Below are positions 1,931 to 64,000 of a stretch of 64,000 bases of DNA, piece by piece. The stretch is from Candidatus Eiseniibacteriota bacterium (lineage in GTDB: Bacteria; Eisenbacteria; RBG-16-71-46). The translations under genes were made by a program, and so were the position numbers. The stretch is taken from assembly GCA_016178725.1 (NCBI GenBank), contig JACOSV010000084.1, positions 55,205-119,204 of the forward strand, read 5' to 3'. The first letter of the stretch is position 1. Each line of letters begins with the position of its first letter. The notes under the pieces were generated by a model, which was not told the origin of the DNA, searched no databases, and worked only from the letters and a program-made list of their open reading frames with translations.

Positions 1931-2008
1931 CCGCGCCGCCCGGAGCCGCCAACCTCTGGCCGTCGTCCGGGCTCGGTTCGAGGTTCTAGCGGCCAGGGAG
2001 GAAGACCC

Positions 2009-2209
2009 ATGGCGCGTGGTACGGTCAAATGGTTCAACGACCGCAAGGGCTACGGTTTCATCACCGCGGAGGGGCAGCCGGACGTGTTCGTCCATTTCTC
2101 CGCGATCCAGGGCAACGGGTTCCGAACGCTTCACGAGGGAGAGAACGTCGAGTTCGACATCAAGGCGAGCGAGCGGGGCGCCGAAGCCTCGCACGTGATC
2201 AAAGTCTGA
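2009..2209 (+). CDS. cspA: cold-shock protein, CspA family
   Basis: 66 aa beginning [18 protein letters not shown]...VFVHFSAI (RNP1/RNP2 motifs). GGGAGGA RBS 7 nt upstream of the ATG. Confidence 0.92.
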
Positions 2210-2321: not shown

Positions 2322-5338
<3,017 letters not shown>

Positions 5339-9021: not shown

Positions 9022-10097
9022 GACGCTCGACGCAGCCGATCGGGCCGCGGCGACCCACGCTCTCTGCGGTATGCCCGCCCGTCCTCCTGCTCGCGCTGCT
9101 CGTCCTCGCATCCTGCGCCAAGAAGGGTGCGCCGACGGGAGGGCCGCCGGACATCGAGCCGCCGCGGTTCATCGGCTCGGTCCCCGATTCCGGCGCCGCC
9201 GGCGTCCCGCGCGACGCCCGCATCACGCTCTCGTTCAGCGAGCCGATGGAGCCGCGCGGGACCGGCGACGCCGTGGCGCTCGCGCCGCGCATCGCGATCA
9301 AGGAGCGGCACTGGAGCCGCCACGCCGTCACGCTGGTGCTCGCCGAATCGCTCGCCGCGAACCACAGCTACACCGTGTTCCTGGGCGGCGGCGCGCGCGA
9401 TCTGCATGGCAACGCGCTGGCCGGCCGCTCGACGCTGGTGTTCACCACCGCGCCGACCCTGCCGCCCGGCGTGCTCGAAGGCCGGATCGAGGCGCGCGGG
9501 TTCAGCGCCGGCGGCACGTACGTCTGGTGCTACGACGCCGCGACGGGCCACGAGCCCGACAGCACCGCGCGCGACTTCGACGCTGTCGGGATCACCGACG
9601 CCGAGGGCCAGTTTCGCGTCGTCGGGCTGATGGTCCCCGGGCGCTACCGGCTCTGGGTGTTCGCCGACCTCAACAACAACCGCTCGTTCGAGCCGCAGAG
9701 CGACATCCTCGCGCCGGTGGACACCGTGTTCACGCTCGGGACCGACCATCCCGCGCTCTCCGGGTTCGCGGTGACGGTGGTCAACCCGCGCGCGCCGGGG
9801 CGCATCCGGGGCGCTGTGCTAGACTCGCTCGGCAGCCGCGAAGGAACGCTGGCGATCGTCGCGGTCGCGGCCGACGACAGCACGCGGCGCGTGCCCGGCA
9901 TCGTCGACGACCAGGGTGCGTTCAATCTGGAGCTCGCCGCCGGCACGTGGATCCTGCGGGCGTGGCGCGACGTCGATCGCAGCCGCACCTGGCAGCCTGC
10001 CACCGAGCCGGCCAGCGCGCCGCAGCGCTTCGTCGTCCCGCCGGCCGGCGACATCGTCGAGGTGAAGCTGGTGCTCGTGCGACCGGGCGGCCGGTGA
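9018..10097 (+). CDS. lipoprotein with Ig-like (Big/SbsA-Ig type) domain
   Basis: ATGA overlap with xerC. Signal peptide plus lipobox LASC. Beta-rich sequence. Confidence 0.55.
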   Translation: MRRSTQPIGPRRPTLSAVCPPVLLLALLVLASCAKKGAPTGGPPDIEPPRFIGSVPDSGAAGVPRDARITLSFSEPMEPRGTGDAVALAPRIAIKERHWSRHAVTLVLAESLAANHSYTVFLGGGARDLHGNALAGRSTLVFTTAPTLPPGVLEGRIEARGFSAGGTYVWCYDAATGHEPDSTARDFDAVGITDAEGQFRVVGLMVPGRYRLWVFADLNNNRSFEPQSDILAPVDTVFTLGTDHPALSGFAVTVVNPRAPGRIRGAVLDSLGSREGTLAIVAVAADDSTRRVPGIVDDQGAFNLELAAGTWILRAWRDVDRSRTWQPATEPASAPQRFVVPPAGDIVEVKLVLVRPGGR

Positions 10098-10967: not shown

Positions 10968-11861
10968 ATGTTCGACGGCATGACGGTGGCGATGGTGACG
11001 CCCTTTCGCAAGGGGGCGGTGGATCTCGAGGCGACCGGCCGGTTGATCGATTTCCTGATCGAGGGCGGCACCGAGTGCATCGTGATCTCGGGCTCGACCG
11101 GCGAGGCGGCGACCTGCACCGTCGACGAGCGCCGCGCGCTGTGGCGATTCGCGAAGGAGCGCGCGCGCGGCCGCGTGCCGCTCGTGGCCGGGACCGGTAC
11201 CAACAACACCGCCGAGAGCATCGCGCTCACGCGCATGGCCGAGGAACTCGGCCTCGACGGGGCGATGATCGTGACGCCGTTCTACAACAAGCCGACGCCC
11301 AAGGGGCAGATCGCGCACTTCACCACGGTGGCGAAGAGCACGCGGCTCCCGCTCATCCTCTACAACGTGCCCGGGCGCACCGCCACCAACACGATGCCCG
11401 AGACGTTCGAGCAGGTGCAGGGCATCACGAACATCGTCGCGGTGAAGGAGGCCTCGGGCAGCCTCGATCAGGCGAGCGCGATCCGCGCCCGCACGTCGCT
11501 CACGCTGCTCTCGGGCGACGACTCGCTGACGCTGCCGATGATCGCGGTCGGCGCGTCCGGCATCATCTCGGTCGCCGGCAACGCCGCGCCGCGCGCGATG
11601 CGCACGCTGACCGACCACGCGCGCGCCGGGCGCCTCGCCGAGGCCGAGCAGTCGCACCGCACGCTGCTGCCGCTCTTCCGCGCGCTGTTCGTCGAGTCGA
11701 ACCCCGGTCCGGTCAAGTTCCTGCTCTCGGCGATGGGGCTGATCGAGAACGAGCTGCGCCTGCCGCTGGTCCCGGTGGAGCCGGCGACCGAGAAGACCGT
11801 GCTCGCGGCCGCGACCGTCGCCGGGATCGCGCTGCCGGACCTCGCGCGGGCGCGGGCGTGA
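10968..11861 (+). CDS. dapA: 4-hydroxy-tetrahydrodipicolinate synthase
   Basis: MFDGMTVAMVTPF...GTTGE...LYNVPGRT DHDPS family motifs. Confidence 0.9.
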   Translation: MFDGMTVAMVTPFRKGAVDLEATGRLIDFLIEGGTECIVISGSTGEAATCTVDERRALWRFAKERARGRVPLVAGTGTNNTAESIALTRMAEELGLDGAMIVTPFYNKPTPKGQIAHFTTVAKSTRLPLILYNVPGRTATNTMPETFEQVQGITNIVAVKEASGSLDQASAIRARTSLTLLSGDDSLTLPMIAVGASGIISVAGNAAPRAMRTLTDHARAGRLAEAEQSHRTLLPLFRALFVESNPGPVKFLLSAMGLIENELRLPLVPVEPATEKTVLAAATVAGIALPDLARARA

Positions 11862-12643
11862 CGGAGATCGTCCTCGTCGGCGCTGCCGGCCGCATGGGAC
11901 GGGCGATCACCGAGGCGCTCGCGGGCGCCTCGGATCTCGCGCTCAAGGCGAGCGTCGAGCGCGGCGAAGCGATCCCGCCCGGCGCGGGGCGGACGTGGTC
12001 GAACGACCTCGGCGCCGCGGTCGCCGGCGGCGACGTGGTCGTCGAGTTCAGCACGCCGGGCGTCGCGGTCGCCGCGGCGCGGCTCTGCGCCGAGCGCGGC
12101 GCGGCGCTGGTCTCGGGCACCACCGGCCTCGACGCGGACGCCGAGCGCGCAATCCGCGACGCCGCCGCGCGGGTCGCCGTCGTACGCGCGGCGAACTTCA
12201 GCCTCGGCGTCCTGGCGCTGCGCCGCGCGCTCGAGGCCGCGCTGGCCGCGCTGCCGCCGAGCTGGGACATCGAGATCGTCGAGCGCCATCATCGCGGCAA
12301 GCAGGACGCCCCCTCGGGCACGGCGCTGATGCTCGGGCGGCAGGCAGTCGAGCGCCGCGGCTACGCGGCGGCGGCGCTGCGCACCGGCCGGACCGGCCGC
12401 GGCCTGCGCCCGCGCGAAGAGGTCGCGATCCACTCGCTGCGCGGCGGCACCTGGATCGGCGACCACGCCGTGGTGATCGCCGGGGCGGGGGAGTGGCTCG
12501 AGCTGCGGCACGTGGCCGAGGATCGCGCGGCGTTCGCGAACGGCGTGCTGGCCGCCGCGCGTTTCGTGGCCGGCGCGTCGCCCGGCCTCTATACTCTCGA
12601 GCACGTCGCGGGGGCCGCCGCCGGAGCCGCGGCGTCGGGGTGA
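11858..12643 (+). CDS. dapB: 4-hydroxy-tetrahydrodipicolinate reductase
   Basis: GTGA overlap with dapA. N-terminal Rossmann motif VGAAGRMGR. Conserved ERHHRGKQDAPSGTA motif. Confidence 0.9.
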   Translation: MTEIVLVGAAGRMGRAITEALAGASDLALKASVERGEAIPPGAGRTWSNDLGAAVAGGDVVVEFSTPGVAVAAARLCAERGAALVSGTTGLDADAERAIRDAAARVAVVRAANFSLGVLALRRALEAALAALPPSWDIEIVERHHRGKQDAPSGTALMLGRQAVERRGYAAAALRTGRTGRGLRPREEVAIHSLRGGTWIGDHAVVIAGAGEWLELRHVAEDRAAFANGVLAAARFVAGASPGLYTLEHVAGAAAGAAASG

Positions 12644-44418: not shown

Positions 44419-44495
44419 TGGTGCGCCCGACAGGAATCGAACCTGTAACCTTTAGCTCCGGAGGCTAACGCTCTATCCAATTGAGCTACGGGCGC
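44419..44495 (-). tRNA. tRNA-Arg (anticodon CCG)
   Basis: Manual cloverleaf: acceptor GCGCCCG/CGGGCGC; D arm GCTC-AATTGGATA-GAGC; anticodon stem TTAGC with loop CTCCGGA; T arm ACAGG-TTCGATT-CCTGT; encoded CCA. Confidence 0.9.
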
Positions 44496-51026: not shown

Positions 51027-52711
51027 GGCCGCGCCGCGGCGTCGAGCAGCTCGCGCGCCTGCCGGCGCGTCGTCGGGCTCGCCTGGTCCCCCGCCAGCAT
51101 GCGCGCCAGCTCGGCGATGCGCGCTTCGCCCGCGACCGAATCGACCCGGGCGGCGGTGCGGCCCGAGGCGACGTGCTTGGTCACGACCAGATGATGGGAG
51201 GCGAGCGCCGCGATCATGGGAAGGTGGGTCACACAGACGATCTGGCGGTGCCTGGAGAGCCGCCGGAGACGCTCCCCGACCGCCTGTGCCACCGCGCCGC
51301 CGATCCCCGAATCTACTTCGTCGAAGATCAGAAGGTCAACGCGGTCCTGCCCTTGAAGCACGCTCTTCAAGCCCAGCATGACCCGCGACAGCTCGCCTCC
51401 CGAGGCGATCTTCGCGAGCGGCCGGAGCGGCTCGCCGGGATTCGCACCGAACAGCAGCTCGACCCGGTCGAATCCGTGCGGACCGAAGCGACCCGCTTCG
51501 CCTTCGGCCGACTCGACGCTGAACTCGATGCGCGCGTGATCGAGGCCGAGCGGCTTGAGCTCGCGCGTCACGCGCCGTCCCCACTCCTCGGCCGCCGCGG
51601 CGCGCTTGCGCGACAGCCCACGGCCGGCCGTCGTCATCGTCTTCGCCGCCGCGGCGACGCGCTCTCGCGCACGCTCGAGCGCGCCGGTCGCGTCCTCGCC
51701 CGTCGCCAGCTCCTCGCCGATCTGCACCTGCCACGCGAGCAGCTCCGGCACTGGGCGGCGGTACTTGCGCGTGAGTCGTGCGATGAGATCCCGCCGCGCC
51801 TCGATCCGCTCGAGCGCCGCGGGATCCGCCTCGAGACCGTCGAGGTAGCGGGCCAGCGATCGGGCCGTTTCCTCGGCCGCGATCCGCGCCTCGCGCAGCG
51901 GCGGCAGCAGGTCGCCGAGGCCGGGATCGAGTGAGGCCGCCTGATCGAGCGCGCGTTCGGCGGCCGCGAGCTGATCGCCCGCCGCGGGATCGTCCTCGCC
52001 GAGCCGCGCAAGCGCCAGGCCCGCGAGCTCGCGCAGGCGGTCGGCGTGCGCGAGTCGGGCCGCGTCGCGCGCGAGATCCTCCTCCTCGCCGGCGACCAGC
52101 GTCGCCTCGTCCAGCTCGCGCGCGGCATGGCGCAGGTAGTCGCTGCGCTCGGCGAACGTGGCGAGCGAGACTTCGAGGCGCTCGAGATCGGCGCCCGCCT
52201 CGCGCCACGCCGCGAGCGTCTCGGCGAAGCGCGTGCGATCACCGTCGAGGGACGCGAGGCGATCGAGCGTCAGCAGCCCAGCCTCGGGCTTGAGCAGACT
52301 CTGGTGCTCGTGCTGGCCGTGGAGATCGGCGAGCGCCTCGCCGAGGCGCTTGAGCGCCGCGAGCGTCACCGGCGACTGGTTGACCGATGCGCGGCTCCGG
52401 CCCGCGCCCGTCACCTCGCGGCGCACGATCACCGTCTCGCCGTCGAACTCGAGGCCCCATTCGGCGAAGAGCGTGCCGACGCGCCGCGCCGATTCGCCTT
52501 CGAGACGAAACTCGCCTTCGACGATGGCCGCATCGGCGCCGTGGCGCACCGCGTCGCCGTCCGCCTTCTCGCCGACCAGCAGGCTCGCCGCCTGCACGAG
52601 CAGCGACTTGCCGGCGCCGGTCTCGCCGGTCAGCGTGTTGAGGCCGGGCGCGAACGGGATCTCGGCGCGCTCGATCACCGAGAGATCGCGGATGGTCAGG
52701 CGCTCGAGCAC
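51023..52711 (-). CDS. recN: DNA repair protein RecN
   Basis: GGAGGAG RBS then GTG, whose first base is the last base of the nadK TAG. LERLTIRDLSVIERAEIPF...TGETGAGKS Walker A. SMC-like coiled coil. C-terminal ...LIFDEVDSGIGG. Confidence 0.85.
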   Translation of the reverse strand: MLERLTIRDLSVIERAEIPFAPGLNTLTGETGAGKSLLVQAASLLVGEKADGDAVRHGADAAIVEGEFRLEGESARRVGTLFAEWGLEFDGETVIVRREVTGAGRSRASVNQSPVTLAALKRLGEALADLHGQHEHQSLLKPEAGLLTLDRLASLDGDRTRFAETLAAWREAGADLERLEVSLATFAERSDYLRHAARELDEATLVAGEEEDLARDAARLAHADRLRELAGLALARLGEDDPAAGDQLAAAERALDQAASLDPGLGDLLPPLREARIAAEETARSLARYLDGLEADPAALERIEARRDLIARLTRKYRRPVPELLAWQVQIGEELATGEDATGALERARERVAAAAKTMTTAGRGLSRKRAAAAEEWGRRVTRELKPLGLDHARIEFSVESAEGEAGRFGPHGFDRVELLFGANPGEPLRPLAKIASGGELSRVMLGLKSVLQGQDRVDLLIFDEVDSGIGGAVAQAVGERLRRLSRHRQIVCVTHLPMIAALASHHLVVTKHVASGRTAARVDSVAGEARIAELARMLAGDQASPTTRRQARELLDAAARP

Positions 52712-53586
52712 TAGAGACTCCTCCGCTCGCTCCCCTGCCAGCCGAGCTTCCGCTGGAGCGAGCGCCCGAACGGCCGCCCGGGATTCCGCACCAGCCGCAC
52801 CGTCGTGCGCGAGAGCGAGACCTGGACCTCGTCGCCGCGCTCGAGGTCCACGGTCTCCTGCCCGTCGAACAGCAGCATCGCGCGATCGAACGCGCCGAGC
52901 AGCCGCAGGCGCACGCCGCCGCGCGGCGAGATCACCAGCGGGCGGCTGCCGAGCGTGTGGGCGCACACTGGCGTCACGACGAACGCCTCGACGTCGGGCG
53001 CGAGCACCGGGCCGCCGGCCGAGAGCGAGTAGGCGGTCGAGCCGGAGGCCGTCGCGCAGATCACGCCGTCGGCGACGAGATGCCCCACGTCCGTGCCGAG
53101 GACGCTCATGCGCAGGTGGAGCGCCGAGTAGCCGCCGGCCGTCTTGAGCACCGCGTCGTTCATCGCGAGCCCGCTGGCCGCGATCCGGCCGCGGCGGCGC
53201 ACGACCGCGCGCACCAGCCGCCGCGGCACGATCGGCCACGCGCCGGCGAGTGCCGCGCGCACGGCGTCGTCGAGCTCGGGCTCGTCGGCCACGGTGAGGA
53301 ATCCGAGGCCGCCGAGGTTGATCGCGAGCAGCGCGCCGGGTCGGCCGGCCATCGCGCGGGCGCCGCGCAGCGCGGTGCCGTCGCCGCCGAGCGTGATCAG
53401 GAGCTGGGCCCAGCGCGCGAGCCCGGCGAGCGGCATGCCGCCCTTCCCCATCTCGCCCGCGAGGTCGCTCGCGAGCCGCGCCGTGCGCCCGCCGCGCGCG
53501 AGGCGCGTGACGAGCCGTGCCGCGGCGCGCTGCACGCCGGCGCGCTCGGTGTGGCCGAGGATGCCGATGCGGCGCGGCACCGCCAT
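52711..53586 (-). CDS. nadK: NAD(+) kinase
   Basis: GGDGT motif (ITLGGDGTAL). NE/DALKTAGGYS conserved region. Confidence 0.85.
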   Translation of the reverse strand: MAVPRRIGILGHTERAGVQRAAARLVTRLARGGRTARLASDLAGEMGKGGMPLAGLARWAQLLITLGGDGTALRGARAMAGRPGALLAINLGGLGFLTVADEPELDDAVRAALAGAWPIVPRRLVRAVVRRRGRIAASGLAMNDAVLKTAGGYSALHLRMSVLGTDVGHLVADGVICATASGSTAYSLSAGGPVLAPDVEAFVVTPVCAHTLGSRPLVISPRGGVRLRLLGAFDRAMLLFDGQETVDLERGDEVQVSLSRTTVRLVRNPGRPFGRSLQRKLGWQGSERRSL

Positions 53587-53594
53587 GGCGGCGC

Positions 53595-55484
53595 CTACGT
53601 GTACTGCCGCTGGTGCGCGCGCACCCAGTCGCGCACGCGCGCGGCGAGCCCCAAGGCGTCGAGGCCGACGGTCGCGAGCAGCTCGTCGCGCTTGCCGTGG
53701 GTCACGAACGCGTCGGGCAGGCCGATGTGGAGGAGCGACGTGGTCGAGAGGTCATGACGCGCGAGGCACTGGTGCACGGCGTCGCCGAAGCCGCCGGCCA
53801 GCACGTTTTCCTCGATCGTGACGATGCGGCCGATCGAGCGCGCGAGGCCGAGGATCGTCGTCTCGTCCACCGGCGCCGCGAAGCGCGCGTTGACGACCGT
53901 GGCCGACATCCCCTCGCCCGCGAGCGTCTCGGCCGCGGCGAGGGCGGGCGCGACCATCGTGCCGAGGGCCAGGATCGCCACGTCGCCGCCGGCGCGCAGC
54001 TGCTCGGACACGCCGAGCGGCAGCACGCGCGGCTCGCGGGTGCCGAGATTCTCCTCGGGCACGTTCGCGCGCGGATAGCGCACGGCGATCGGGCCTTCGT
54101 GCTGCACCGCCGTCCACAGCATGTCGCGCAGCTCTTCGCCGTTCCGCGGCTGCATGACGACGACGCCCGGGATCATGCGCAGGAATCCGACGTCGAAGGC
54201 GCCGTGCTGCGGTCCGCCGTCCTCGCCCACGAGTCCGGCACGGTCCACGCAGAAGACGACGTGCAGGTTCTGCACGGCAACATCGTGGATGATCTGGTCG
54301 AAGCCGCGCTGCAGGAACGTCGAGTAGATCGTCGTGAGCGGGATCAGGCCGCCGGCGGCGAGGCCGGCCGAGAACGTGACGCCGTGCTCCTCGGCCATGC
54401 CGACGTCGAAGAAGCGATCGGGGAAGCGCTTCGCGAACGGCTTGAGACCGGTGTTGTCGGTCATCGCCGCGGTGACCGCGACGACCTTCGGCAGGCGCGC
54501 CGCGATCTCGACGGCGGTCTCGCCGAACACCTGTGTGTACGTCTTCTTCGCGCTCTTCGACGACGTGCCGGTCTCGGGGTCGAACACGCCGACGCCGTGG
54601 AACGTGCCGGCATCGCTCTCGGCCGGAGCGTAGCCCTTGCCCTTCTTGGTCACGACGTGGAGCAGCACCGGGCCCGGCACTTCCTTGAGCTCGATCAGCG
54701 TGTGCATCAGGAGATCGAGGTCGTGCCCGTCGATCGGACCGTAGTACTTGAGCCCGAGCTCCTCGAAGAGCACGCCGGGCACGACGAGGTTGGCGAGCCC
54801 TTCCTTGATCCGCCGCGCCGCCTCCTGCGCCCGGTGGCCGAGCCGCGGCACGCGTCCGAGCAGCTCGTAGACGTCGCGCTCGAACTGGCGGTAGAAGCGG
54901 TGCGTGGTGAGGCGCGTGAGGTAGCGCGCAATCGCGCCGACGTTGGGCGAGATGCTCCACTCGTTGTCGTTGAGCACCACCAGCATCCTGCGCCGCAGCT
55001 CGCCGGCGTTGTTGAGGCCCTCGAACGCCATGCCGCCGGTGAGCGCGCCGTCGCCGATCACCGCGACGACGTGGAAGTCCTCGCCGGCGAGATCGCGCGC
55101 GACGGCGAAGCCGAGCGCCGCCGAGATCGAGGTGCTGCCGTGGCAGGTGCCGAACGGATCGTGATCGCTCTCGTCGCGCGCCGGATAGCCCTTGATGCCG
55201 CCGAGGCTGCGCAGCGTGTCGAAGCGGTCGAACCGGCCGGTGACGAGCTTGTGCGGATAGGACTGGTGGCCGACGTCCCAGATGATCTTGTCGCGCGGCG
55301 AATCGAACACGCGGTGAAGCGCGAGCGTGAGCTCGACGACGCCGAGGTTGGGCGCGAGGTGGCCGGCGCGGCGCGCCACGGTCTGGATGATGACGTGGCG
55401 GATCTCGGCCGCGAGCTGGTCGAGCTCGGCGCGCGACAGCGCCTTGAGATCGGCCGGCGAGTGGATGCGTTCGAGCAGGCTCAT
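53595..55484 (-). CDS. dxs: 1-deoxy-D-xylulose-5-phosphate synthase
   Basis: TPP-binding GDG(X)25-30N region. HQSYPHK. Transketolase-like C-terminus. ATGA overlap with the downstream DUF212 gene; the alternative GTG start at 55499 is possible. Confidence 0.9.
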   Translation of the reverse strand: MSLLERIHSPADLKALSRAELDQLAAEIRHVIIQTVARRAGHLAPNLGVVELTLALHRVFDSPRDKIIWDVGHQSYPHKLVTGRFDRFDTLRSLGGIKGYPARDESDHDPFGTCHGSTSISAALGFAVARDLAGEDFHVVAVIGDGALTGGMAFEGLNNAGELRRRMLVVLNDNEWSISPNVGAIARYLTRLTTHRFYRQFERDVYELLGRVPRLGHRAQEAARRIKEGLANLVVPGVLFEELGLKYYGPIDGHDLDLLMHTLIELKEVPGPVLLHVVTKKGKGYAPAESDAGTFHGVGVFDPETGTSSKSAKKTYTQVFGETAVEIAARLPKVVAVTAAMTDNTGLKPFAKRFPDRFFDVGMAEEHGVTFSAGLAAGGLIPLTTIYSTFLQRGFDQIIHDVAVQNLHVVFCVDRAGLVGEDGGPQHGAFDVGFLRMIPGVVVMQPRNGEELRDMLWTAVQHEGPIAVRYPRANVPEENLGTREPRVLPLGVSEQLRAGGDVAILALGTMVAPALAAAETLAGEGMSATVVNARFAAPVDETTILGLARSIGRIVTIEENVLAGGFGDAVHQCLARHDLSTTSLLHIGLPDAFVTHGKRDELLATVGLDALGLAARVRDWVRAHQRQYT

Positions 55485-55885
55485 GTGATCCAGGTCCACA
55501 GCACGGCGCTGCCGACTCCGAGCAGCGCCCCCACGAGCACTTCGAAGGGCGTGTGGCCGAGCAGCTCCATGAGCCTCTGCGCGCCCTCCTCGGGATTCTT
55601 GAAGTGTTCGTCGATCAGGCGGTTCAGCACCTCGGCGTGACGGCCCGCCGCACGCCGGAGGCCGGCCGCATCATACATGACGATCAGACTGAAGAATAAG
55701 GTGACGCCGAAGATGGACGAGCGGAATCCCTCCTCGAGCCCGATCATCGTCGAGAGCGCCGACACCGACGCGGCGTGCGAGCTCGGCATGCCGCCGGTCG
55801 CGACGAATCGCCGCAGGTTCCAGCGCCGGGTGCGCACGAACTCGGCGACGCCCTTGTAGCCCTGGACGAGGAACCCGATGCTCAA
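55481..55885 (-). CDS. divergent PAP2-family membrane protein (DUF212/YuiD-like)
   Basis: Small hydrophobic protein with the SSH/PSSHAA motif characteristic of DUF212. Confidence 0.55.
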   Translation of the reverse strand: MSIGFLVQGYKGVAEFVRTRRWNLRRFVATGGMPSSHAASVSALSTMIGLEEGFRSSIFGVTLFFSLIVMYDAAGLRRAAGRHAEVLNRLIDEHFKNPEEGAQRLMELLGHTPFEVLVGALLGVGSAVLWTWIT

Positions 55886-55922
55886 CGCGAGCCAGAGCGC
55901 CTTCGTACGGTCTCCCCGATGT

Positions 55923-56906
55923 CTAGCGGTCGCGCTCGGCGACCGCGAGGATGAGATGGCCCAGATTCCACGCGCGGATGCCGAGCCGCTCGACGCGGCC
56001 GAGCGCGCTCACGAACAGCCGTCCGGCCTCGATCCGGGCGCGGTCGTCACCGACGGCGCGCGGATACGTCGCCTTGCCGCGCGCGTCGTCGGTGCCGGCG
56101 CGCTTGCCGAGCCGCGCGAGCGACGAGCGCCGGTTGAGCAGATCGTCGTGGATCTGGAACGCGAGGCCGAGCTCGAGCCCCATCGCGCCGAGCGCCCGCA
56201 GCCGTCCGGGGCTCGCGTTGCCCGCGAGGCCGCCGGTCATGAGTGCCGCGCGGATCAGGCCGCCGGTCTTGCGCAGATGGATGTCGCGGACGCCGCTCCC
56301 GCTCACGCGCCGGCCCTCGCCCTCGAGGTCGAGCACCTGCCCGCCGACCAGCACACGGCTCCCCGCCGCCTGGGCGAGCAGCGCGACGGCGCGGCACGCA
56401 GCGCGCGGCGATGCGGCGCGCGCCCGCGCGAGCGTCTCGAACGCCAGCGCGAGCAGGGCGTCGCCCGCGAGCAGCGCCGTCGCCTCGTCGAAGCGCTTGT
56501 GCGTCGTCGGCCGACCGCGGCGGAAGTCGTCGTCGTCCATTGCGGGCAGATCGTCGTGGACGAGCGAGAACGCGTGCACCAGCTCGACCGCGGCCGCTGC
56601 GGGCAACGCGCGCTCGTAGCGGCCGCCGACCGCCTCGCACGCGGTGAGCGCGAGCAGCGGGCGCAGCCGCTTGCCGGGTCCGAGCGCCGCGTAGCGCATC
56701 GCCGCGTGGAGCGCGGGCGGGGTTTCCTTCGCCGCGGGCAGGACGCCGGCGAAGTAGCGCTCGAAGCGGTCGAGGCGCGCGCGCAGCGGCGCGCGCTCGG
56801 CGCCCGCGAGCCAGCCCTCGGAGGTCGCGCGGGCTGCGGCCCGCGGCCGCCGCGCCTCGCGCGCATCCGGCGAGAGCACCGCCTGCCCCGCGCGCGAAGA
56901 GCTCAA
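55923..56906 (-). CDS. ispA: polyprenyl diphosphate synthase (farnesyl/geranylgeranyl diphosphate synthase)
   Basis: First DDxxD (LVHDDLPAMDDDDFRRG) and second DDxxD (FQIHDDLLN) motifs. xseB-ispA-dxs order as in E. coli. Confidence 0.85.
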   Translation of the reverse strand: MSSSRAGQAVLSPDAREARRPRAAARATSEGWLAGAERAPLRARLDRFERYFAGVLPAAKETPPALHAAMRYAALGPGKRLRPLLALTACEAVGGRYERALPAAAAVELVHAFSLVHDDLPAMDDDDFRRGRPTTHKRFDEATALLAGDALLALAFETLARARAASPRAACRAVALLAQAAGSRVLVGGQVLDLEGEGRRVSGSGVRDIHLRKTGGLIRAALMTGGLAGNASPGRLRALGAMGLELGLAFQIHDDLLNRRSSLARLGKRAGTDDARGKATYPRAVGDDRARIEAGRLFVSALGRVERLGIRAWNLGHLILAVAERDR

Positions 56907-57220
56907 AACGGGAGCTCGCCCTCCCCGCTTCCGGAGTCGCGGTCGTTGCGCTCGTTGTCGAGTTCGAGCGGGCGTGTCGCGGGCGGCTGCCCCTGCTCCT
57001 CGACGAGCCGTTCGATCCGCTGTTCGGCCTGATCGAGGCTCGCGGTCAGCCGCCGCGACAGCCGCACGCCCTCTTCGTAGCGGGCGAGCGACTCCTCGAG
57101 CGTGAGCGATCCGGCTTCGAGCTCCTCGACGATGGTCTCGAGGCGCTCGAGCGCCTGCTCGAACGGCGGCTCGGCGTCGCCGGCGTTGCTCGCGGCCGCG
57201 CCGCGCTTACTCGCGGGCAT
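56903..57220 (-). CDS. xseB: exodeoxyribonuclease VII small subunit
   Basis: FEQALERLETIVEELEAGSLTLEESLARYEEGVRL helical hairpin typical of XseB. ATGA overlap with ispA. Confidence 0.8.
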   Translation of the reverse strand: MPASKRGAAASNAGDAEPPFEQALERLETIVEELEAGSLTLEESLARYEEGVRLSRRLTASLDQAEQRIERLVEEQGQPPATRPLELDNERNDRDSGSGEGELPF

Positions 57221-58577
57221 CGTTCCCTCCGGGGCGCACGGATTCGACCCGCGCGTCGGCCTCGCCGCGCGCGAACTCGATCGTGACGGGATCATTCACG
57301 GCCAGCTCGGCGGCGACGCGCAGCAGGGTACCGTCGGGCCGTCGCACAAGGCAATAACCGCGTTCCATCACGCGGCGCGGCGAGAGCGCGCGCAGGCGAT
57401 CGTCGTGGCCGGCGAGCCGCAGGCGGCGCGCGTGCATCGCGTCCACCGTGAGCGGCGTGAGCCGCGCGGCGAGCGCCGCGAACGCCTCGCGCCGGCGCAC
57501 GAGTGTGCGCGGCCACTCGCGCAGGCCGTAGCGCGTCCCGGCCGCGGCGAGCCGGGCGCGCGCCGCGGCCAGCGCCGCCCGCACGCGCGCGGCCATCCGC
57601 TCGCGCAAGCCGTCGACGCGCTGCTGCCAGAAGCCGAGCGCGTCGCGCTGGCGGCGGAACCCGTACTTCTCGATCAGCTCGCGCAGCCGGCGGCGGCGGC
57701 GGTCGAAGCCGACGCGCACGGCGCGCATCGCGCGGCCCTCGAGCACTTCGATGCCGCCGCGCACCTCGCGCCGGTCACGGACCGCGATCTCGGCGGCGTT
57801 GGACGGCGTCGCCGCGCGCACGTCGGCGGCGAGATCGGCGAGCGTCACGTCCACCTCGTGCCCGATGGCGGCGATCACGGGCAGCTTCGATCCCGCGATC
57901 GCACGCACCACCGGCTCTTCGTTGAACGCCCAGAGATCCTCGAGCGAGCCGCCGCCGCGGCCGACGATGAGCAGATCCACCTTCATGTAACGGTTGAAGC
58001 GCGCGATGGCGGAGGCGATCTCCTGTGCGGCGCCCGGTCCCTGCACGCGCACCGGCGCGAGGACGATCCCAGTTCCCGGCCAGCGCGTGCGCAGCACCTT
58101 GACCATGTCGCGCACGGCCGCGCCGACGGGCGAGGTGACGAGCCCGATGCGTTCGGGATACCGGGGCAGCGGCTTGCGGCGCGCGGGATCGAACAGGCCC
58201 TCGGCCTGCAGCCGGCGCTTGAGCTCCTCGTACGCGACCAGCAGCGCGCCGAGGCCGCCCGGCCGCAGCGTCTCGACCACGAGCTGATAGCGCCCGCGCG
58301 GCGCGTAGACGGTGACCGCGCCGAACGCCTCGACCTCGGTGCCGTCCTTCGGCTCGAACGTGAGCCGGTTCGCGGCCGTGCTCCACATCACGCAGTCGAG
58401 CAGCGCGTCCTTGCCGTCCTTGAGCGCGAAGTAGAGCTGGCCGCGATCGGCGCGTTTGACGCCCGACAGCTCCCCCTTGACCCACACGGCCGGGAACGCG
58501 CCGTCGAGCGTGTCCTTGATGAGGCGCGTGAGCGCCGAGACCGAGAGGATGCGCTCGGACGCGGGCGAGACCGCCAT
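57207..58577 (-). CDS. xseA: exodeoxyribonuclease VII large subunit
   Basis: N-terminal OB fold (...SVSALTRLIKDTLDGAFPAVWVKGELS). Central catalytic region ...LIVGRGGGSLEDLWAFNEE. Confidence 0.85.
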   Translation of the reverse strand: MAVSPASERILSVSALTRLIKDTLDGAFPAVWVKGELSGVKRADRGQLYFALKDGKDALLDCVMWSTAANRLTFEPKDGTEVEAFGAVTVYAPRGRYQLVVETLRPGGLGALLVAYEELKRRLQAEGLFDPARRKPLPRYPERIGLVTSPVGAAVRDMVKVLRTRWPGTGIVLAPVRVQGPGAAQEIASAIARFNRYMKVDLLIVGRGGGSLEDLWAFNEEPVVRAIAGSKLPVIAAIGHEVDVTLADLAADVRAATPSNAAEIAVRDRREVRGGIEVLEGRAMRAVRVGFDRRRRRLRELIEKYGFRRQRDALGFWQQRVDGLRERMAARVRAALAAARARLAAAGTRYGLREWPRTLVRRREAFAALAARLTPLTVDAMHARRLRLAGHDDRLRALSPRRVMERGYCLVRRPDGTLLRVAAELAVNDPVTIEFARGEADARVESVRPGGNDARE

Positions 58578-59011
58578 CAGAGCCCGCCGGCTTCGGCGAA
58601 CGTGAGGACGTTGCCGTCGGGATCGATCACGACGAACTCGGCCGGCGTCCCCGCGGCCTGGACGATTCCCAGCGCGCTCCACTCGGCGAAGAGCGCGGCG
58701 GCGTCGTCGGCGGCGACGCGACAGCCGCCCGCCTTCGGCAGCGCGGGATCGGCGGAGCGCCGAAGGAGGATCTCGACGTCGTCGCGCGACAGCAATGCGT
58801 GGTCCTCGAAGCGCGAGCCGGGCGCAAACCCGAGCTGCCCGGCGTAGAACTCGATCGCGCGCCCGATGTCGAGCACCGGGAGGATCGGCACGGCGCGGCG
58901 GAGCCGCGGACCGGACGGCTCGGGCGCGGCCGCGCGCGCGACGAGCCGCTTCGCGGCCGGCCGCTTGTCGTGCGCGAGCTTCTCCACCTTCGCGCGCGAC
59001 AGCTTGCTCAC
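58577..59011 (-). CDS. VOC (glyoxalase/bleomycin-resistance) family protein
   Basis: Single paired beta-alpha-beta-beta-beta module (...VPILPVLDIGRAIEFY...VVIDPDGNVL). GTG start in a GTGA overlap with the upstream DinB-like gene. Confidence 0.5.
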   Translation of the reverse strand: MSKLSRAKVEKLAHDKRPAAKRLVARAAAPEPSGPRLRRAVPILPVLDIGRAIEFYAGQLGFAPGSRFEDHALLSRDDVEILLRRSADPALPKAGGCRVAADDAAALFAEWSALGIVQAAGTPAEFVVIDPDGNVLTFAEAGGL

Positions 59012-59589
59012 GTCCGCATCGCTCCGGCGCGGACGCGATGGAGGTGGCGCAGCAGGTTGACCTGGCCGTAGTGCCCGGCCTCGTGCTCGAGCACGTGGTA
59101 GAGCGTCCAGCCCACCGTGCACTCGAACTCGGTGTCGGTCGTCCACGTCGCCATGAATCTGTAGCGACGATCGAGGTCCGCGTCCGTGAGCGTCGCCACC
59201 AGCTGCTTCGTCCGCGCCCGGGCGCGCGCGCGCAGGTCGTCGAAGTAGGCGAGGTCGCGGCCGCCGAGCGCCGCGGGGGCCGCGGCTTCCTCCGGCATCG
59301 GAATTCCGATCTCGGCCCGCGTGATCCCGAGGTCGCCTTCGTCGCCGCGCTCGGGGCCGAGGACCGCGCGGTTGATCCAGCGCACCTCGACGACGGCGAT
59401 GTGGGCGAGCAGCTGGCCGATCGTGTTCATCCCCGGAGCCGGCTGCCAGCCGAGCTCGTCCGGCGTCGCGCCGCGCGTGTCCTCGGTGAGCCGCCGGCTC
59501 TGGTCGTCCATCTGCCACAGGAAGAGGCCGACGGGATGCGATCGGTTGCCGGCGACCGGCGTGAGGAATCGCTGCTCGAGCTTGGGCAT
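59008..59589 (-). CDS. DinB/YfiT-like (DinB_2, four-helix bundle metal-binding) family protein
   Basis: His triad spacing (H...H...EHEAGH) typical of DinB_2. Confidence 0.6.
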   Translation of the reverse strand: MPKLEQRFLTPVAGNRSHPVGLFLWQMDDQSRRLTEDTRGATPDELGWQPAPGMNTIGQLLAHIAVVEVRWINRAVLGPERGDEGDLGITRAEIGIPMPEEAAAPAALGGRDLAYFDDLRARARARTKQLVATLTDADLDRRYRFMATWTTDTEFECTVGWTLYHVLEHEAGHYGQVNLLRHLHRVRAGAMRT

Positions 59590-59611
59590 TCGCGTTCTCC
59601 CTCCCCGAGGC

Positions 59612-61294
59612 CTAGACCCTGACTCCGCTCATCTGACGCTCGACCGCGGCGACCGTGTTGGCGACGACCATCGCCACGGTCATCGGGCCCACGCCGCCCG
59701 GCACCGGCGTCAGCGCCCCCGCGACCTGCGCGACGCCGCGCGCGTCGACGTCGCCCACGAGCTTCTTCACGTCCTCGCGCCCCGGCGCCGCCGGATGGAT
59801 GCCCACGTCCACGACCGTCGCGCCCGGCTTCACCCAGTCGGCGGTCACCCACTCGGGCCGGCCGATCGCCGCGACGAGCAGATCCGCCTCGCGCGCCGCG
59901 TCGCGCAACGAAGGCCCGCTCGCGCTGTGGCCGACCGTGACCGTCATGTCGACGCCCCGGCTCGAGAGCAGTGTGGCGAGCGGTCGGCCGACGATCGCGC
60001 TGCGGCCGAGCACGGTCGCGCGGTGGCCGGCGAGCGGCACCTCGTAGTAACGCAGCAGGTGGAGGATGCCGCGCGGCGTGCACGGCACGAATCCCGGCAG
60101 GCCCGCCGCGAGCCGGCCCGCGTTCACCGGATGGAACCCGTCCACGTCCTTCTCGGGCGGGATCGCTTCGAGCGCGGCCCCGGCGTCGGCGGGCGGCGCC
60201 AACGGCAGCTGGAGCAGGATGCCGTGCACGTCGCGGCTCGCGCCGAGTATCCGGATCTTCTCGATCACGGTCGCCGTGTCGGCGCCCGCGGCCAGCGTCA
60301 CGCGCTTCACCTCGATCCCGACCTCGGCGCACGCCTCGCTCTTGCGCTTGAGATAGATCTGCGACGCCGGGTGCTCGCCGACCGAGACCAGCGCCAGGGT
60401 CGGGACCACGCCGCCCGCGCGCAGCTCGGCGACGCGAACGCGCGCCTCGGCGCGCACCGCGGCCGCGGGCTCCTCGCCCGAGAGCCGGCGCGCCCCCTCG
60501 CCCGAAGGCATCGCGAATCGGATCTGCAGGCGCTCGATCGACTGCGCACGGCCGGTCGCGGGATCGACGCGCAGCACCGCGCCGTTCAGCCGCAGGTCGC
60601 CGGACGCGGGCGTCAGGCGCTCGGGCATGCCGGTCAGGAACCGGCGCAGGGCCGCGTCGCGGTCCATGCCGATCACCGATTCGAAGCCGCCGGTCATCCC
60701 GGCGTCGCAGAGGAACGCCGTGCCGTTCGGCAGCACGCGCTCGTCGGCGGTCTGAACGTGCGTGTGCGTCCCGATCACGGCGCTCACGCGCCCGTCGAGG
60801 TGCCAGCCGAGGGCGATCTTCTCGGCGGTTGTCTCGGCGTGGATGTCGACGAGCACGACCTTGCACTTGCCGCGCATCGCCTCGAGCACGGAGTCGGCGG
60901 CGCGAAACGGATCGTCGGCCTCCTTCATGAACACGCGACCGAGCAGGTTCAGGATGCCGACCGCCGTGCCGTCGCCGGCGCGCACGATGCGCCAGCCCGC
61001 GCCCGGAGTTCCCGGCGGCAGGTTGGCGGGGCGGACGAGCCGCGCCTCGCCGCGCAGGTAATCGATGCTCTCCTTGCGATCCCAGATGTGGTTGCCGCCG
61101 GTGAGGACGTCGATCCCGGCGGCGAAGAGGCCGGACGCCGAGTCGCGCGTGAGGCCGAAGCCGCCGGCGGCGTTCTCCCCATTGCAGACGACGAGGTCGA
61201 TCGCGTGGCGGCGCTTGAGCTCGGGGAGCAGCGCGCGCACCACGTCGCGCCCCGGCGCCCCGATCACGTCGGCGATGAAGAGGATGTTCAGCAT
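59612..61294 (-). CDS. fusion protein: YmdB-like calcineurin-type metallophosphoesterase (2',3'-cNMP phosphodiesterase) N-terminal domain + FolD (methylene-THF dehydrogenase/methenyl-THF cyclohydrolase) C-terminal domain
   Basis: Residues 1-270: MLNILFIADVIG...GNHIWD...GTHTHVQTAD (YmdB/TIGR00282). Residues 285-560: VGEHPASQIYLKRK...DVDGFHP...VPCTP...GRSAIVGRP...GGVGPMTVAMV (FolD). Single uninterrupted frame, directly downstream of rny. Confidence 0.8.
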   Translation of the reverse strand: MLNILFIADVIGAPGRDVVRALLPELKRRHAIDLVVCNGENAAGGFGLTRDSASGLFAAGIDVLTGGNHIWDRKESIDYLRGEARLVRPANLPPGTPGAGWRIVRAGDGTAVGILNLLGRVFMKEADDPFRAADSVLEAMRGKCKVVLVDIHAETTAEKIALGWHLDGRVSAVIGTHTHVQTADERVLPNGTAFLCDAGMTGGFESVIGMDRDAALRRFLTGMPERLTPASGDLRLNGAVLRVDPATGRAQSIERLQIRFAMPSGEGARRLSGEEPAAAVRAEARVRVAELRAGGVVPTLALVSVGEHPASQIYLKRKSEACAEVGIEVKRVTLAAGADTATVIEKIRILGASRDVHGILLQLPLAPPADAGAALEAIPPEKDVDGFHPVNAGRLAAGLPGFVPCTPRGILHLLRYYEVPLAGHRATVLGRSAIVGRPLATLLSSRGVDMTVTVGHSASGPSLRDAAREADLLVAAIGRPEWVTADWVKPGATVVDVGIHPAAPGREDVKKLVGDVDARGVAQVAGALTPVPGGVGPMTVAMVVANTVAAVERQMSGVRV

Positions 61295-61301
61295 CGGCGC
61301 C

Positions 61302-62867
61302 CTACTTCGCGTAGTCCACGGCGCGCGTCTCGCGGATCACGGTGACGCGGATCTGGCCCGGGTACTGCAGCTCCTTCTCGATCCGCCGCGCGATCTCGCC
61401 GGCGAGGTCCTGCGCGCGCGCGTCGTCCACCTTGGAGTGCTCGACCAGGATGCGGATCTCCCGGCCCGCCTGGATCGCGTACGATTTCTCGACGCCCGGA
61501 AACGTGCCGGCGATCCGCTCCAGCGACTCGAGGCGCTTGATGTAGATCTCGAGGCTCTCGCGGCGCGCGCCGGGGCGTGCGCCCGAAACCGCGTCGGCCG
61601 CGGCGACCAGCACCGGCCACAGGCTGCCGCCCGCGTAGTCGTCGTGGTGGTAGCCGATCGATTCGAGCACCGGCTGCGGCTCGCCATAGCGCGCCGCGAC
61701 GTCCATCCCTAGCGCCGGGTGCGTGCCCTCCTGATCGTGGTCGATCGCCTTGCCGATGTCGTGCATCAGGCCGCCGCGCTTGGCCATCTTCTGATCCATG
61801 CCGATCTCGGCCGCCATCATGCCCGCGAGGTGCGCGACCTCGATCGAGTGGCGCAGGATGTTCTGCCCGTACGAGGTGCGGTAGTGCAGCCGGCCGAGCA
61901 GCTGCTGCAGCTCGGGGTGGATGCCGTGGACGCCGACCTCGAGGCAGGCGAGCTCGCCGAGCTCCTTGATCTTGCTCTCGACTTCGCCCTTCACCTTGGC
62001 GACCACTTCCTCGATCCGCGCCGGATGGATGCGCCCGTCGGCGACCAGACGCTCGAGCGACTGACGCGCGATCTCGCGCCGCACGGGATCGAAGCCCGAG
62101 AGGATGACCGCCTCCGGCGTGTCGTCGATGATGACGTCGACGCCGGTGATGGTCTCGAACGAGCGGATGTTGCGCCCCTCGCGGCCGATGATGCGGCCCT
62201 TCATGTCGTCGCTCGGCAGGTGCACGACCGACACCGACGACTCGGAGACCTGATCGCCGGCGTAGCGCTGCATCGCCAGCGTGATGATCTTGCGCGCCTC
62301 GCGCTCGGCGTTGCGCTGTGCGGCGTCGCGGATCTCGGCCACGCGGCGGTTGGCCTCGGCGCGCGCCTCGCTCTCGATGCTCGCAAGCAGCTGCGCCCGC
62401 GCCTCGTCGGCGCTCATGCCGGCGACGCGTTCGAGCCGCGCGGTCTGCTCCTGCATCAGCGTCTCGAGCTGGGCGTTGCGCTGCTGCACCGCGCCCTCGC
62501 GCTGGCCGACCTCCTGCTCGAGGCGCTTCAGGTCGCGGTCCTTCTTCTCGACCAGCTCGACGCGGCGATTGAACGCCGCCTCGCGCTCCTGGAACGCTCG
62601 CTCGGTCGCGAGCTGCGTGCTGCGCGCCTGCTGGTTCTCGCGCTCGCCCTGCTGGCGCAGCTTGAGTGCTTCTTCCTTGCCCTCGAGCACGGCCGCGCGC
62701 TTGACCGCGTCGGCCTCGCGCCGCGCGTCCTCGACGATCACCTGCGCCTGACGCTCGGCGTCGCCGAGCCGCGTCGCGGCGAGGCGCGCGCGCGCCGTCC
62801 ATCCGACCGCAAACGAAACGACGGCACCGATCACGATGCCGCCGATCCAGAACACGATATTCATCAC
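61302..62867 (-). CDS. rny: ribonuclease Y
   Basis: N-terminal TM helix. Coiled coil. KH domain ([12 protein letters not shown]). HD domain ([15 protein letters not shown]...HDIGK). Confidence 0.9.
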
Positions 62868-62949
62868 CCGTCTCCCGCGCCCCGGTTCCGGCGCGGGCGC
62901 CGCTCCGCCGCGAGGCGGAACCGCGCGCCGGCGCCGGCCGGGGCACCCG

Positions 62950-63160
62950 CGGGGCCAGACAATCCCCGCCGAAATGCCGTGTGCATTGGCGTTCTTGAGA
63001 CCTGGAAATCCAGGTGGGCGCGCCTCGAGCGGGTCGGTCCTCCCGAGCGCTTACGCGCCGGGCGCGACGTCGCCGATCACCGGAACACCCTTGAACGTCA
63101 TTAATGGTTCAAGAACGGTAGATGCATCACGGGCACGGCAGGGAATCCACGGCAAAACCG
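62950..63160 (-). ncRNA. ssrS: candidate 6S RNA (ssrS); strand and boundaries tentative
   Basis: Immediately downstream of zapA, as in E. coli. Contains CGUUCUUGAACC-auuaaugac-GUUCAAGGGUG, nearly identical to the conserved E. coli 6S 3' central-bubble element CCUUGAACCAAGGGUUCAAGGGU. A distal partner CUCAAGAACG and a closing-stem pair UGCCGUG/CACGGCA give a long hairpin with an internal bubble. Confidence 0.45.
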
Positions 63161-63179
63161 TCCATCGTCCTCCGCGGCT

Positions 63180-63482
63180 CTAGCCGGACGGGCTCTTCTC
63201 GAACAGATCGTCCAGCACCGCGTTCAAGCGCGCCGCCCGCGAGCCCAGCGTCTTCTCCTGGGCCTCGAGCCGCGCGCGCTCCTTGAACAGCTCATCGGCG
63301 ATGTTGAGTGAGGCGAGGATCGCCACCTTCGAGAGCGAAGCCACCGGCAGCTTGTCGGTGATCTCGCGCATCTTGCGGTCCACGTACCCCGCGACGCCCA
63401 GGATGTACTCCTGATCGGCCTCGCCGCGGATCGTGTAGCCGTGGCCGAAGATCTGCACCTGAACCACGTTCTTGGCGTCCAT
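63180..63482 (-). CDS. zapA: cell division protein ZapA
   Basis: VQVQIFGHGYTIRGEADQEYILGVAGYVDRKMREI...SLSKVAILASLNIADE. The start is placed at MDAKNVV rather than the upstream low-complexity extension. Confidence 0.8.
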   Translation of the reverse strand: MDAKNVVQVQIFGHGYTIRGEADQEYILGVAGYVDRKMREITDKLPVASLSKVAILASLNIADELFKERARLEAQEKTLGSRAARLNAVLDDLFEKSPSG

Positions 63483-63589
63483 CGCCCCTCGCTTCGCCGG
63501 GAACTCCCTGCGTGGTGTCGATGTCATGCCCCGCCCGCCCGTCGGGCGGGGCGGCTCCCCGCGACCACGAATGCGTCGCGGGACGTCGT

Positions 63590-63886
63590 CTACGTCTCGA
63601 GCTTCTCCAGCTTCCTCACCAGCGACTCGATGCGGGTCGCTACCGTGCGACGCTCGCCCTGCCACTCGCGCTGCTCCCTGCGCAGCGCCTGCAGCTCCGA
63701 GGTCATTGCCGTCAGATCGTGGCCGTGAAGCTTCGACTCGGCGTCGCGCAGCTTGCGCGCGAGCTCGTCGCGCTCGCGCTCGAGGCGCTGCTGGTCGTCG
63801 CGCATGCGCTGCACCAGCGCCGCCGCCTTCTCCACCCGTTCGGCGAGCAGATCGAGATCCGTCGCCATCGTCGTCGTTTCCGTCAT
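63590..63886 (-). CDS. ZapB-like coiled-coil cell division protein
   Basis: 98-aa heptad-rich sequence. ATGA overlap with the pheT stop. Position between pheT and zapA. Confidence 0.5.
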   Translation of the reverse strand: MTETTTMATDLDLLAERVEKAAALVQRMRDDQQRLERERDELARKLRDAESKLHGHDLTAMTSELQALRREQREWQGERRTVATRIESLVRKLEKLET

Positions 63887-64000
63887 CGCTCTCTCAATCG
63901 CGCGCCGAGGGTCTTCGCCGCAGCCGCGGTCATCCGGTCCTGGATCGTCTGGATCTCGGCCTCGGTGAGCGTGCGCTCCGGATGCTGGAACCGCAACGCG
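63883..64000 (-). CDS. pheT: phenylalanine--tRNA ligase beta subunit, 3' end only
   Basis: C-terminal FDX-ACB-like peptide ...FQHPERTLTEAEIQTIQDRMTAAAAKTLGARLRER*. Confidence 0.65.
   Translation of the reverse strand, partial: ALRFQHPERTLTEAEIQTIQDRMTAAAAKTLGARLRER

Follow-up and report, generated by a model that had tools for sequence, protein, structure and literature searches.

A single reading frame joins YmdB and FolD

We analyzed a 64,000-nucleotide stretch of contig JACOSV010000084.1 (assembly GCA_016178725.1, a Candidatus Eiseniibacteriota bacterium), hereafter the window, for a gene that joins a YmdB-type metallophosphoesterase to the folate enzyme FolD. An initial interpretation made from the letters alone (the sequence-only reading) had described this gene, ymdB::folD, as one uninterrupted frame of 560 residues, and the open reading frame (ORF) listing bears this out: the frame lies at 59612..61294 on the minus strand, with its ATG at 61294-61292 and a TAG stop at 59614-59612. 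Pfam assigned three domains to the product. YmdB (PF13277) covers residues 5-256 and the whole profile (1-253 of 253; E-value 1.8e-104, 349 bits against a gathering score of 27), THF_DHG_CYH (PF00763) covers residues 271-385 (profile 1-115 of 115, 99.5 bits), and THF_DHG_CYH_C (PF02882) covers residues 388-554 (profile 1-159 of 160, 191.9 bits), the latter two also above their gathering scores. The YmdB part (residues 1-258) is encoded at 60521..61294, a linker (about residues 259-267) at 60494..60520, and FolD (residues 268-560) at 59615..60493, where the catalytic domain occupies 60140..60484 and the NAD(P)-binding domain 59633..60133, all on the minus strand.

The GC content of the window is 72%, and a 674-residue ORF overlaps the gene on the plus strand (59321..61345). 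We took this ORF to be a high-GC artefact and not a gene, because the minus-strand frame carries every domain match and has a GC content at third codon positions (GC3) of 0.90-0.97, uniform over its full length. An AlphaFold2 model of the fusion had a mean predicted local distance difference test score (pLDDT) of 88 and a predicted template-modelling score of only 0.62, values that would fit two well-folded domains whose mutual orientation is not fixed. A structure search returned no PDB chain that spans both halves or covers more than half of the model. The fusion is one polypeptide with two complete, constrained catalytic modules on a short variable tether.

Both halves look functional

The claim that the N-terminal half is a complete YmdB/TIGR00282 domain holds. 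The fusion passes the NCBIfam model TIGR00282 (278.6 bits against a cutoff of 254.15), a dinuclear metallophosphoesterase family, and residues 2-256 of Bacillus subtilis YmdB (4b2o) can be aligned to it with an E-value of 3e-81. In this alignment D9, E40, N41, N68, H152, H177 and H179 of the fusion match D8, E39, N40, N67, H150, H175 and H177 of 4b2o_A, all seven identical; in the 4B2O structure these residues are the reported ligands of the dinuclear metal site. All seven are invariant in a 121-sequence alignment of the fused family, except for alignment gaps at D9 in 3 of the 121. By Foldseek, the YmdB half of the model has a calcineurin-like fold, with a template-modelling (TM) score of 0.94 relative to the target, a root-mean-square deviation of 2.0 Å and 47% identity for 4b2o_A, and a TM score of 0.93 for 1t70_A. 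The N-terminal 258 residues align end to end with B. subtilis YmdB (4B2O) and Deinococcus DR1281 (1T70), and by analogy with these homologues this half would hydrolyze 2′,3′-cyclic nucleotides or phosphodiesters. Unlike known YmdB/TIGR00282 (PF13277) members, which are stand-alone proteins of about 255-285 residues, it has a FolD attached to its C-terminus. The regulatory roles of YmdB in Bacillus (biofilm formation and SinR, nanotubes) should not be assumed for the Eisenbacteria fusion.

The C-terminal half was described as a complete bifunctional FolD of about 275 residues; completeness stands, with both Pfam domains full-length, while the length is about 290 residues. The full-length FolD match spans residues 268-555, and these roughly 290 C-terminal residues align over the whole enzyme (E-values of about 1e-63) with bacterial FolD from Escherichia coli (1B0A/5O22), Mycobacterium tuberculosis (2C2X) and Acinetobacter baumannii (4B4U). 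Residues 3-278 of E. coli FolD (1b0a) can be aligned, placing Y314, K318, Q362 and D385 of the fusion at Y50, K54, Q98 and D121; the Y50-x-x-x-K54 pair, Q98 and D121 are the catalytic residues of the E. coli enzyme. All four are invariant in the 121 members, as are the Rossmann motif G430-R-S-A-I-V-G-R-P438 (GRSxxxGRP) and P532-G-G-V-G-P537 (PGGVGP). Foldseek comparison of this half with solved FolDs gave 39-46% identity and TM scores of 0.93, the last relative to the target for 4b4u and 2c2x. Mean pairwise identity within the fused family is 0.70 for the FolD catalytic domain, 0.77 for the NAD(P)-binding domain and 0.76 for the YmdB domain. In contrast to other bacterial FolDs, the enzyme lacks a separate start codon and sits behind YmdB, its loop at residues 500-512 is slightly longer, and the N-terminal I-D-G-K motif has become L-x-G-x-E-P. 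We predict that the C-terminal half acts as an NAD(P)-dependent 5,10-methylene-tetrahydrofolate (THF) dehydrogenase and 5,10-methenyl-THF cyclohydrolase.

These data bear on the idea that one half is a relic that has decayed or lost catalysis, either a pseudo-FolD backed by a separate folD or a YmdB reduced to a scaffold. In favor of decay, no NCBIfam FolD equivalog model reaches its curated cutoff; the best score is 296.4 bits against 438 (NF010781), and the model nearest to passing is NF010783 (281 against 333 bits). The N-terminal motif is also altered, with the usual I-(I/L)-D-G-K replaced by R-L-x-G-x-E-P-A-A-A throughout the fused family (residues 268-277, window about 60464..60493), and a second folD could lie elsewhere in the genome. 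However, the NCBIfam FolD models are narrow and clade-specific with high cutoffs, and missing them does not exclude a protein from the family; we kept the FolD assignment because the catalytic residues and the fold are those of FolD. Within the altered motif L271, G273 and A277 are invariant and E275 and P276 nearly so. Further, the FolD catalytic residues and motifs and the YmdB metal ligands do not vary among the 121 members, both Pfam FolD domains score far over their gathering thresholds, and no second folD was found in the 64-kb window or within about 10 kb on either side of the fusion in L081, a related locus. The ratio of nonsynonymous to synonymous substitution rates (dN/dS) is 0.12 for the YmdB half and 0.20 for the FolD half, both from the closest pair only (L083, 90% amino-acid identity), the values for L081 and L001 being inflated by synonymous saturation and extreme GC3. 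A degraded FolD half, which would have undone the sequence-only reading, was ruled out by the 1b0a alignment, the invariant catalytic residues and its dN/dS, and we consider a relic of either kind highly improbable. Both halves look functional and under purifying selection, both activities would be retained, and the FolD half is probably the housekeeping FolD of the cell.

The fusion is rare and confined to one clade

The sequence-only reading named a sequencing error as another way in which the fusion could fail, and a single ORF could indeed arise as an artefact of assembly or sequencing, with a stop or frameshift missed between ymdB and folD. Separate adjacent genes are usual in other phyla, and an error of 1-2 nucleotides would merge them. 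Against this, at least 120 clusters at 90% identity share YmdB and both FolD domains at 70-90% identity (best matches from a search of 5.8 billion protein clusters), and the same unbroken architecture of about 560 residues recurs in all 120 listed. These come from independent metagenomes in four data sources (JGI, ENA, NCBI and Logan assemblies), with lengths of 553-572 residues in all but one (P0109, 501 residues). The junction can be aligned in frame across the family, and GC3 is uniform along the gene. Two of the listed clusters (P0047 and P0048) and two genome loci (L001 and L003) are labelled Candidatus Eisenbacteria. Comparison of the junction with related genomes showed the same single fused ORF in L001, which is among species-representative genomes, in the 479-kb L081 and in L083, and separate genes in other phyla; in L003 the fused frame is open up to the end of the contig. 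Recurrence effectively refutes an artefact, which we regard as next to impossible.

The sequence-only reading called the fusion unusual, and the searches agree. A HMMER search of 1.84 billion representatives at 50% identity returned one full-length fused representative, P0121 (565 residues), and a few junction-spanning fragments, with the remaining top-150 representatives being stand-alone YmdB (about 265 residues) or FolD (about 285 residues). No independent fusion from elsewhere is in this top 150, a range that would have included any fused protein about 35-45% identical in each half. The fusion is rare and confined to one clade, and, with a single full-length fused example in the 1.84 billion, it probably arose once. 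A fragment, P0122/L082, reads through the YmdB-FolD junction at 53% identity, and therefore the fused clade is deeper than the cluster of 70-90% identity.

The linker is variable

In contrast to the domains, the linker, about 10 residues long (RFAMPSGEG in the window copy), has a mean pairwise identity of only 0.35 within the fused family. Between anchor residues 256 and 271 the region varies in length from 14 to 19 residues, and the pLDDT of the model dips to 69 at residues 261-270. The junction peptide quoted in the sequence-only reading is present, and its statement that the junction has no ribosome-binding site is correct in that no Shine-Dalgarno sequence precedes M262. Its statement that there is no internal start needs amending, as M262 is itself an in-frame ATG inside the junction.

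This ATG raises the question of whether separate proteins are still made, by internal initiation at or near M262 or by a protease cutting within the linker. The position of M262 is that expected for the ancestral folD start, and the linker is exposed and flexible in the model. On the other hand, most family members carry A, R, P or V in place of M262, and the family alignment shows no visible conserved cleavage-like motif in the linker. Because M262 is unconserved and lacks an upstream Shine-Dalgarno sequence, a conserved internal start seems unlikely and was rejected as a feature of the family; continued production of two separate proteins strikes us as very unlikely.

The fusion sits at the seam of two conserved gene pairs

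The fusion gene lies directly downstream of rny, as had been stated. The rny gene (61302..62867, minus strand; RNase_Y_N, KH_1 and HD domains) encodes RNase Y, and its stop is 7 nucleotides before the fusion ATG. Firmicutes ymdB has the same position relative to rny, and the claim that this linkage is conserved agrees with the rny-ymdB pair found in 13 of the 23 ymdB loci examined. The folD-xseA pair, for its part, also occurs in Bacillus, Sporolactobacillus, Liquorilactobacillus, several Clostridia and Nitrospinota. The flanks are common to fused and unfused loci, with zapA and rny upstream and xseA-xseB downstream in L001, L002, L017 and L081. The fusion lies where two old conserved blocks, rny-ymdB and folD-xseA, meet.

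In other phyla ymdB and folD are separate but adjacent on the same strand. Such pairs were found in Methylomirabilia (L002), Gemmatimonadota (L017 and L019), Zixiibacteriota (L014), Ignavibacteriales (L012), Cloacimonadota (L015) and two unclassified metagenome-assembled genomes (MAGs; L006 and L013). The stop of ymdB and the start of folD overlap by 1 nucleotide in L014 and L015, by 4 (GTGA) in L019 and by 8 in L017, and are 39 nucleotides apart in L013 and 77 in L006. In the L002 MAG the two genes (5872..7728) are in the same frame, with one stop codon and 78 nucleotides between them. The pairs in L002, L012-L015, L017 and L019 share with the fusion the order (zapA)-rny-ymdB-folD-(xseA-xseB) on one strand and 45-56% identity in each half. 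They differ in being two ORFs that overlap by 1-8 nucleotides or are spaced by 39-79, whereas the Eisenbacteria version has no stop. One substitution would fuse the L002 genes with a linker of about 26 residues.

Because ymdB and folD are already adjacent, and often overlapping, in other phyla, we interpret the fusion as the loss of a stop codon between neighbors. From ancestrally adjacent genes, which would have been translationally coupled, the ymdB stop was presumably lost in place by a point mutation or a small frameshift, giving one polypeptide with two autonomous enzymes on a short flexible tether. The main consequence would be obligate 1:1 co-expression and co-localization, and not substrate channelling. 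Solved YmdB proteins are tetramers and FolD is a dimer, and given these states higher-order assemblies of the fused protein could form. The fused-family junction, GG-AR-x-L-x-G-x-E, resembles the LQGG* tail of ymdB in L017 that overlaps the folD start VAEVIDGK, a likeness that fits a stop-loss origin and is only suggestive.

Taken as a whole, we consider it likely that this is a lineage-fixed fusion of the Candidatus Eisenbacteria type, formed by in-place loss of the ymdB stop, in which two autonomous enzymes are tethered without channelling. Several points weigh against this. In place of the usual I-D-G-K motif, the FolD N-terminus of the fused family has L-x-G-x-E-P-A-A-A, and the check for a second folD reached the window and about 10 kb of flank in L081. 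The locus sample is biased towards loci holding both genes, and the case for this lineage is built from sequence and predicted structure. Finally, coupled adjacency in several phyla and fixation in a deep clade could reflect selection for a functional link.

Gene neighborhood of ymdB::folD

The window has the order coiled-coil ORF, zapA, 6S RNA, rny, ymdB::folD, dinB, xseA, xseB, ispA, DUF212, dxs and nadK, and from zapA to nadK this forms a co-directional housekeeping cluster (52711..63886 with the coiled-coil ORF, minus strand). At its head, a coiled-coil ORF of 98 residues (63590..63886, minus) lies just upstream of zapA (63180..63665, minus; PF05164, E-value 1.4e-20). This ORF occupies the position of ZapB in Proteobacteria and is kept in L001, L003 and L081 at 53-75% identity; it has no Pfam match, to ZapB or otherwise. 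Between zapA and rny lies a 6S RNA (ssrS; 62959..63147, minus), which matches the full Rfam model RF00013 (positions 1-187) with 66.6 bits against a gathering score of 46.4. The 6S RNA is in the same interval in L001, L003 and L081, the three Eisenbacteria loci that cover it, and in L002, and it is upstream of rny-ymdB in L072. Even a sensitive Rfam scan did not detect it in the zapA-rny gaps of two Gemmatimonadota loci, and therefore the 6S linkage is not universal.

Downstream of the fusion, a DinB_2/MST-like gene (59008..59589, minus; PF12867, E-value 4e-21) starts 22 nucleotides after the fusion stop and is preceded by GGGAGGGAG, a ribosome-binding site. L001 lacks it here and has xseA immediately after the fusion. 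The exonuclease VII subunits follow, the large (xseA; 57207..58682, minus; PF02601, E-value 7.5e-94) and the small (xseB; 56903..57295, minus; PF02609, E-value 3e-19). Between the DinB_2 gene and xseA there is probably a small gene (about 58577..59035, minus) whose C-terminal sequence resembles a 153-residue ORF at the same position in L083. The L083 ORF has weak Glyoxalase and faint Ble-like Pfam matches, and Pfam found nothing in the window copy. The ORF listing over-extends both this small ORF and xseA, so that their true starts are uncertain; that of xseA is probably downstream of 58682.

The 7-nucleotide spacer suggests that the fusion gene would be co-transcribed with rny, and it is probably expressed from the zapA-6S RNA-rny-ymdB::folD-dinB-xseAB-ispA-dxs cluster. 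A scan of 56500-64000 found no promoter; it gave 3 terminator-like sites, where 1.8 were expected, and none of these is intergenic. The folD-xseA-xseB-ispA-dxs part, through to recN, matches the gene order of B. subtilis, a sign of very old synteny.

The L081 locus extends the cluster, with pheS-pheT before zapA and, after nadK, a gene with an SMC_N domain that is recN-like by position. Small insertions, which differ by lineage, are tolerated. L081 has two, at 9584..9988 and 11741..12145, namely a 134-residue ORF with a weak UPF0150-like match between rny and the fusion and a response-regulator receiver after the fusion, and L083 has a 3-dmu-9_3-mt gene on the opposite strand (1549..2028) between the upstream ORF and the fusion. 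In unfused loci the ymdB-folD pair itself is split by an aspartyl-protease-like ORF (1718..2119) in KSB1 locus L011 and by a DNA methylase (3297..4292) in Melioribacteraceae locus L024. In an uncultured Clostridia MAG (L022, 6001..8547) folD comes first and ymdB follows about 950 nucleotides on, the reverse of the window order, and the tested frame of the stretch between them contains stops. A tRNA-Arg(CCG) gene (44419..44495, minus) is the sole tRNA of the window.

A functional link between YmdB and FolD is doubtful

The sequence-only reading went on to propose that the fusion couples a phosphodiesterase to the supply of one-carbon units. We found nothing direct for such coupling, and adjacency in at least 5 phylum-level lineages followed by stop loss suffices; the idea is unsupported because stop-codon loss between neighbors explains the fusion without a biochemical link. 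A broader form is that the fusion marks a real functional partnership, within a module for growth phase or RNA metabolism that begins with ZapA and 6S RNA. In such a partnership FolD might be tethered to the RNase Y/YmdB machinery, or phosphodiesterase output might respond to folate or NADP status.

YgfA, a 5-formyl-THF cyclo-ligase, makes 5,10-methenyl-THF, a substrate of FolD. Proteobacteria have a ZapB-ZapA-SsrS cluster followed by YgfA, which likewise belongs to 5,10-methenyl-THF metabolism, and this cluster has been proposed to act as a switch between proliferative modes (PMC7641849). The Eisenbacteria locus is similar in having a coiled-coil ORF, zapA and 6S RNA at its head and then a 5,10-methenyl-THF enzyme on the same strand. 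It differs in that rny and the YmdB domain intervene between the 6S RNA and the folate enzyme, and in that this enzyme is FolD and not the cyclo-ligase. A partnership would also agree with the overlapping stop and start codons of adjacent ymdB and folD in those lineages and with a fusion that is fixed, with both halves constrained.

The comparative data speak against a partnership. The adjacency falls exactly at the seam of the independently conserved rny-ymdB and folD-xseA pairs, Acidobacteriota L004 has ymdB followed directly by xseA-xseB with no folD between, and insertions split ymdB from folD in L011 and L024. Of the loci from Firmicutes that a FolD match had retrieved, L022 alone carries ymdB close by, and there the order differs. 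The 6S RNA went undetected in the Gemmatimonadota loci, the linker varies and scores low for model confidence, domain orientation is left unfixed in the AlphaFold2 model, and the literature found links YmdB and FolD nowhere. We conclude that a functional partnership is improbable.

A more specific version would make ymdB::folD the covalent end-point of a growth-transition module comprising the coiled-coil ORF, ZapA, 6S RNA, RNase Y, YmdB and FolD, in which YmdB and FolD affect each other physically or allosterically and the 6S locus is recurrently wired to a 5,10-methenyl-THF enzyme (YgfA or FolD). We offer this only as a speculative long shot. If true, it would be the first biochemical clue to the physiological role of YmdB.

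FolD takes part in other fusions, including the eukaryotic trifunctional C1-THF synthase MTHFD1 and, among the representatives, a bacterial FolD with a PurN-like formyltransferase (P0227), FolD with STAS (P0206) and a CCG cysteine-rich domain with FolD (P0253). FolD can thus be joined covalently to a partner through either of its ends. In MTHFD1 and P0227 the partners belong to one pathway, whereas YmdB has no known folate connection.

Implications for annotation and for the origin of the fusion

Literature searches pairing YmdB with FolD, methylenetetrahydrofolate or TIGR00282 brought up no account of a YmdB-FolD fusion, and the combination appears to be undescribed. Both halves are ordinary members of well-known families, and in its mechanism the gene is most likely a routine neighbor-gene fusion. 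A clade-wide fusion is a cheap 'Rosetta-stone' hint to the function of YmdB, and the synteny suggests that the hint is weak. Together with its unfused relatives, the fusion provides a natural series for its own origin: spaced genes, genes that share a frame across a single stop, an overlapping stop and start, and finally the fused gene.

The public names given to these proteins are 'TIGR00282 family metallophosphoesterase', '2′,3′-cyclic-nucleotide 2′-phosphodiesterase' or 'hypothetical'. Databases name only the metallophosphoesterase because the FolD equivalog models score under their cutoffs while TIGR00282 passes. Metabolic reconstruction of Eisenbacteria from such names can wrongly call FolD, a core enzyme of one-carbon metabolism, missing.

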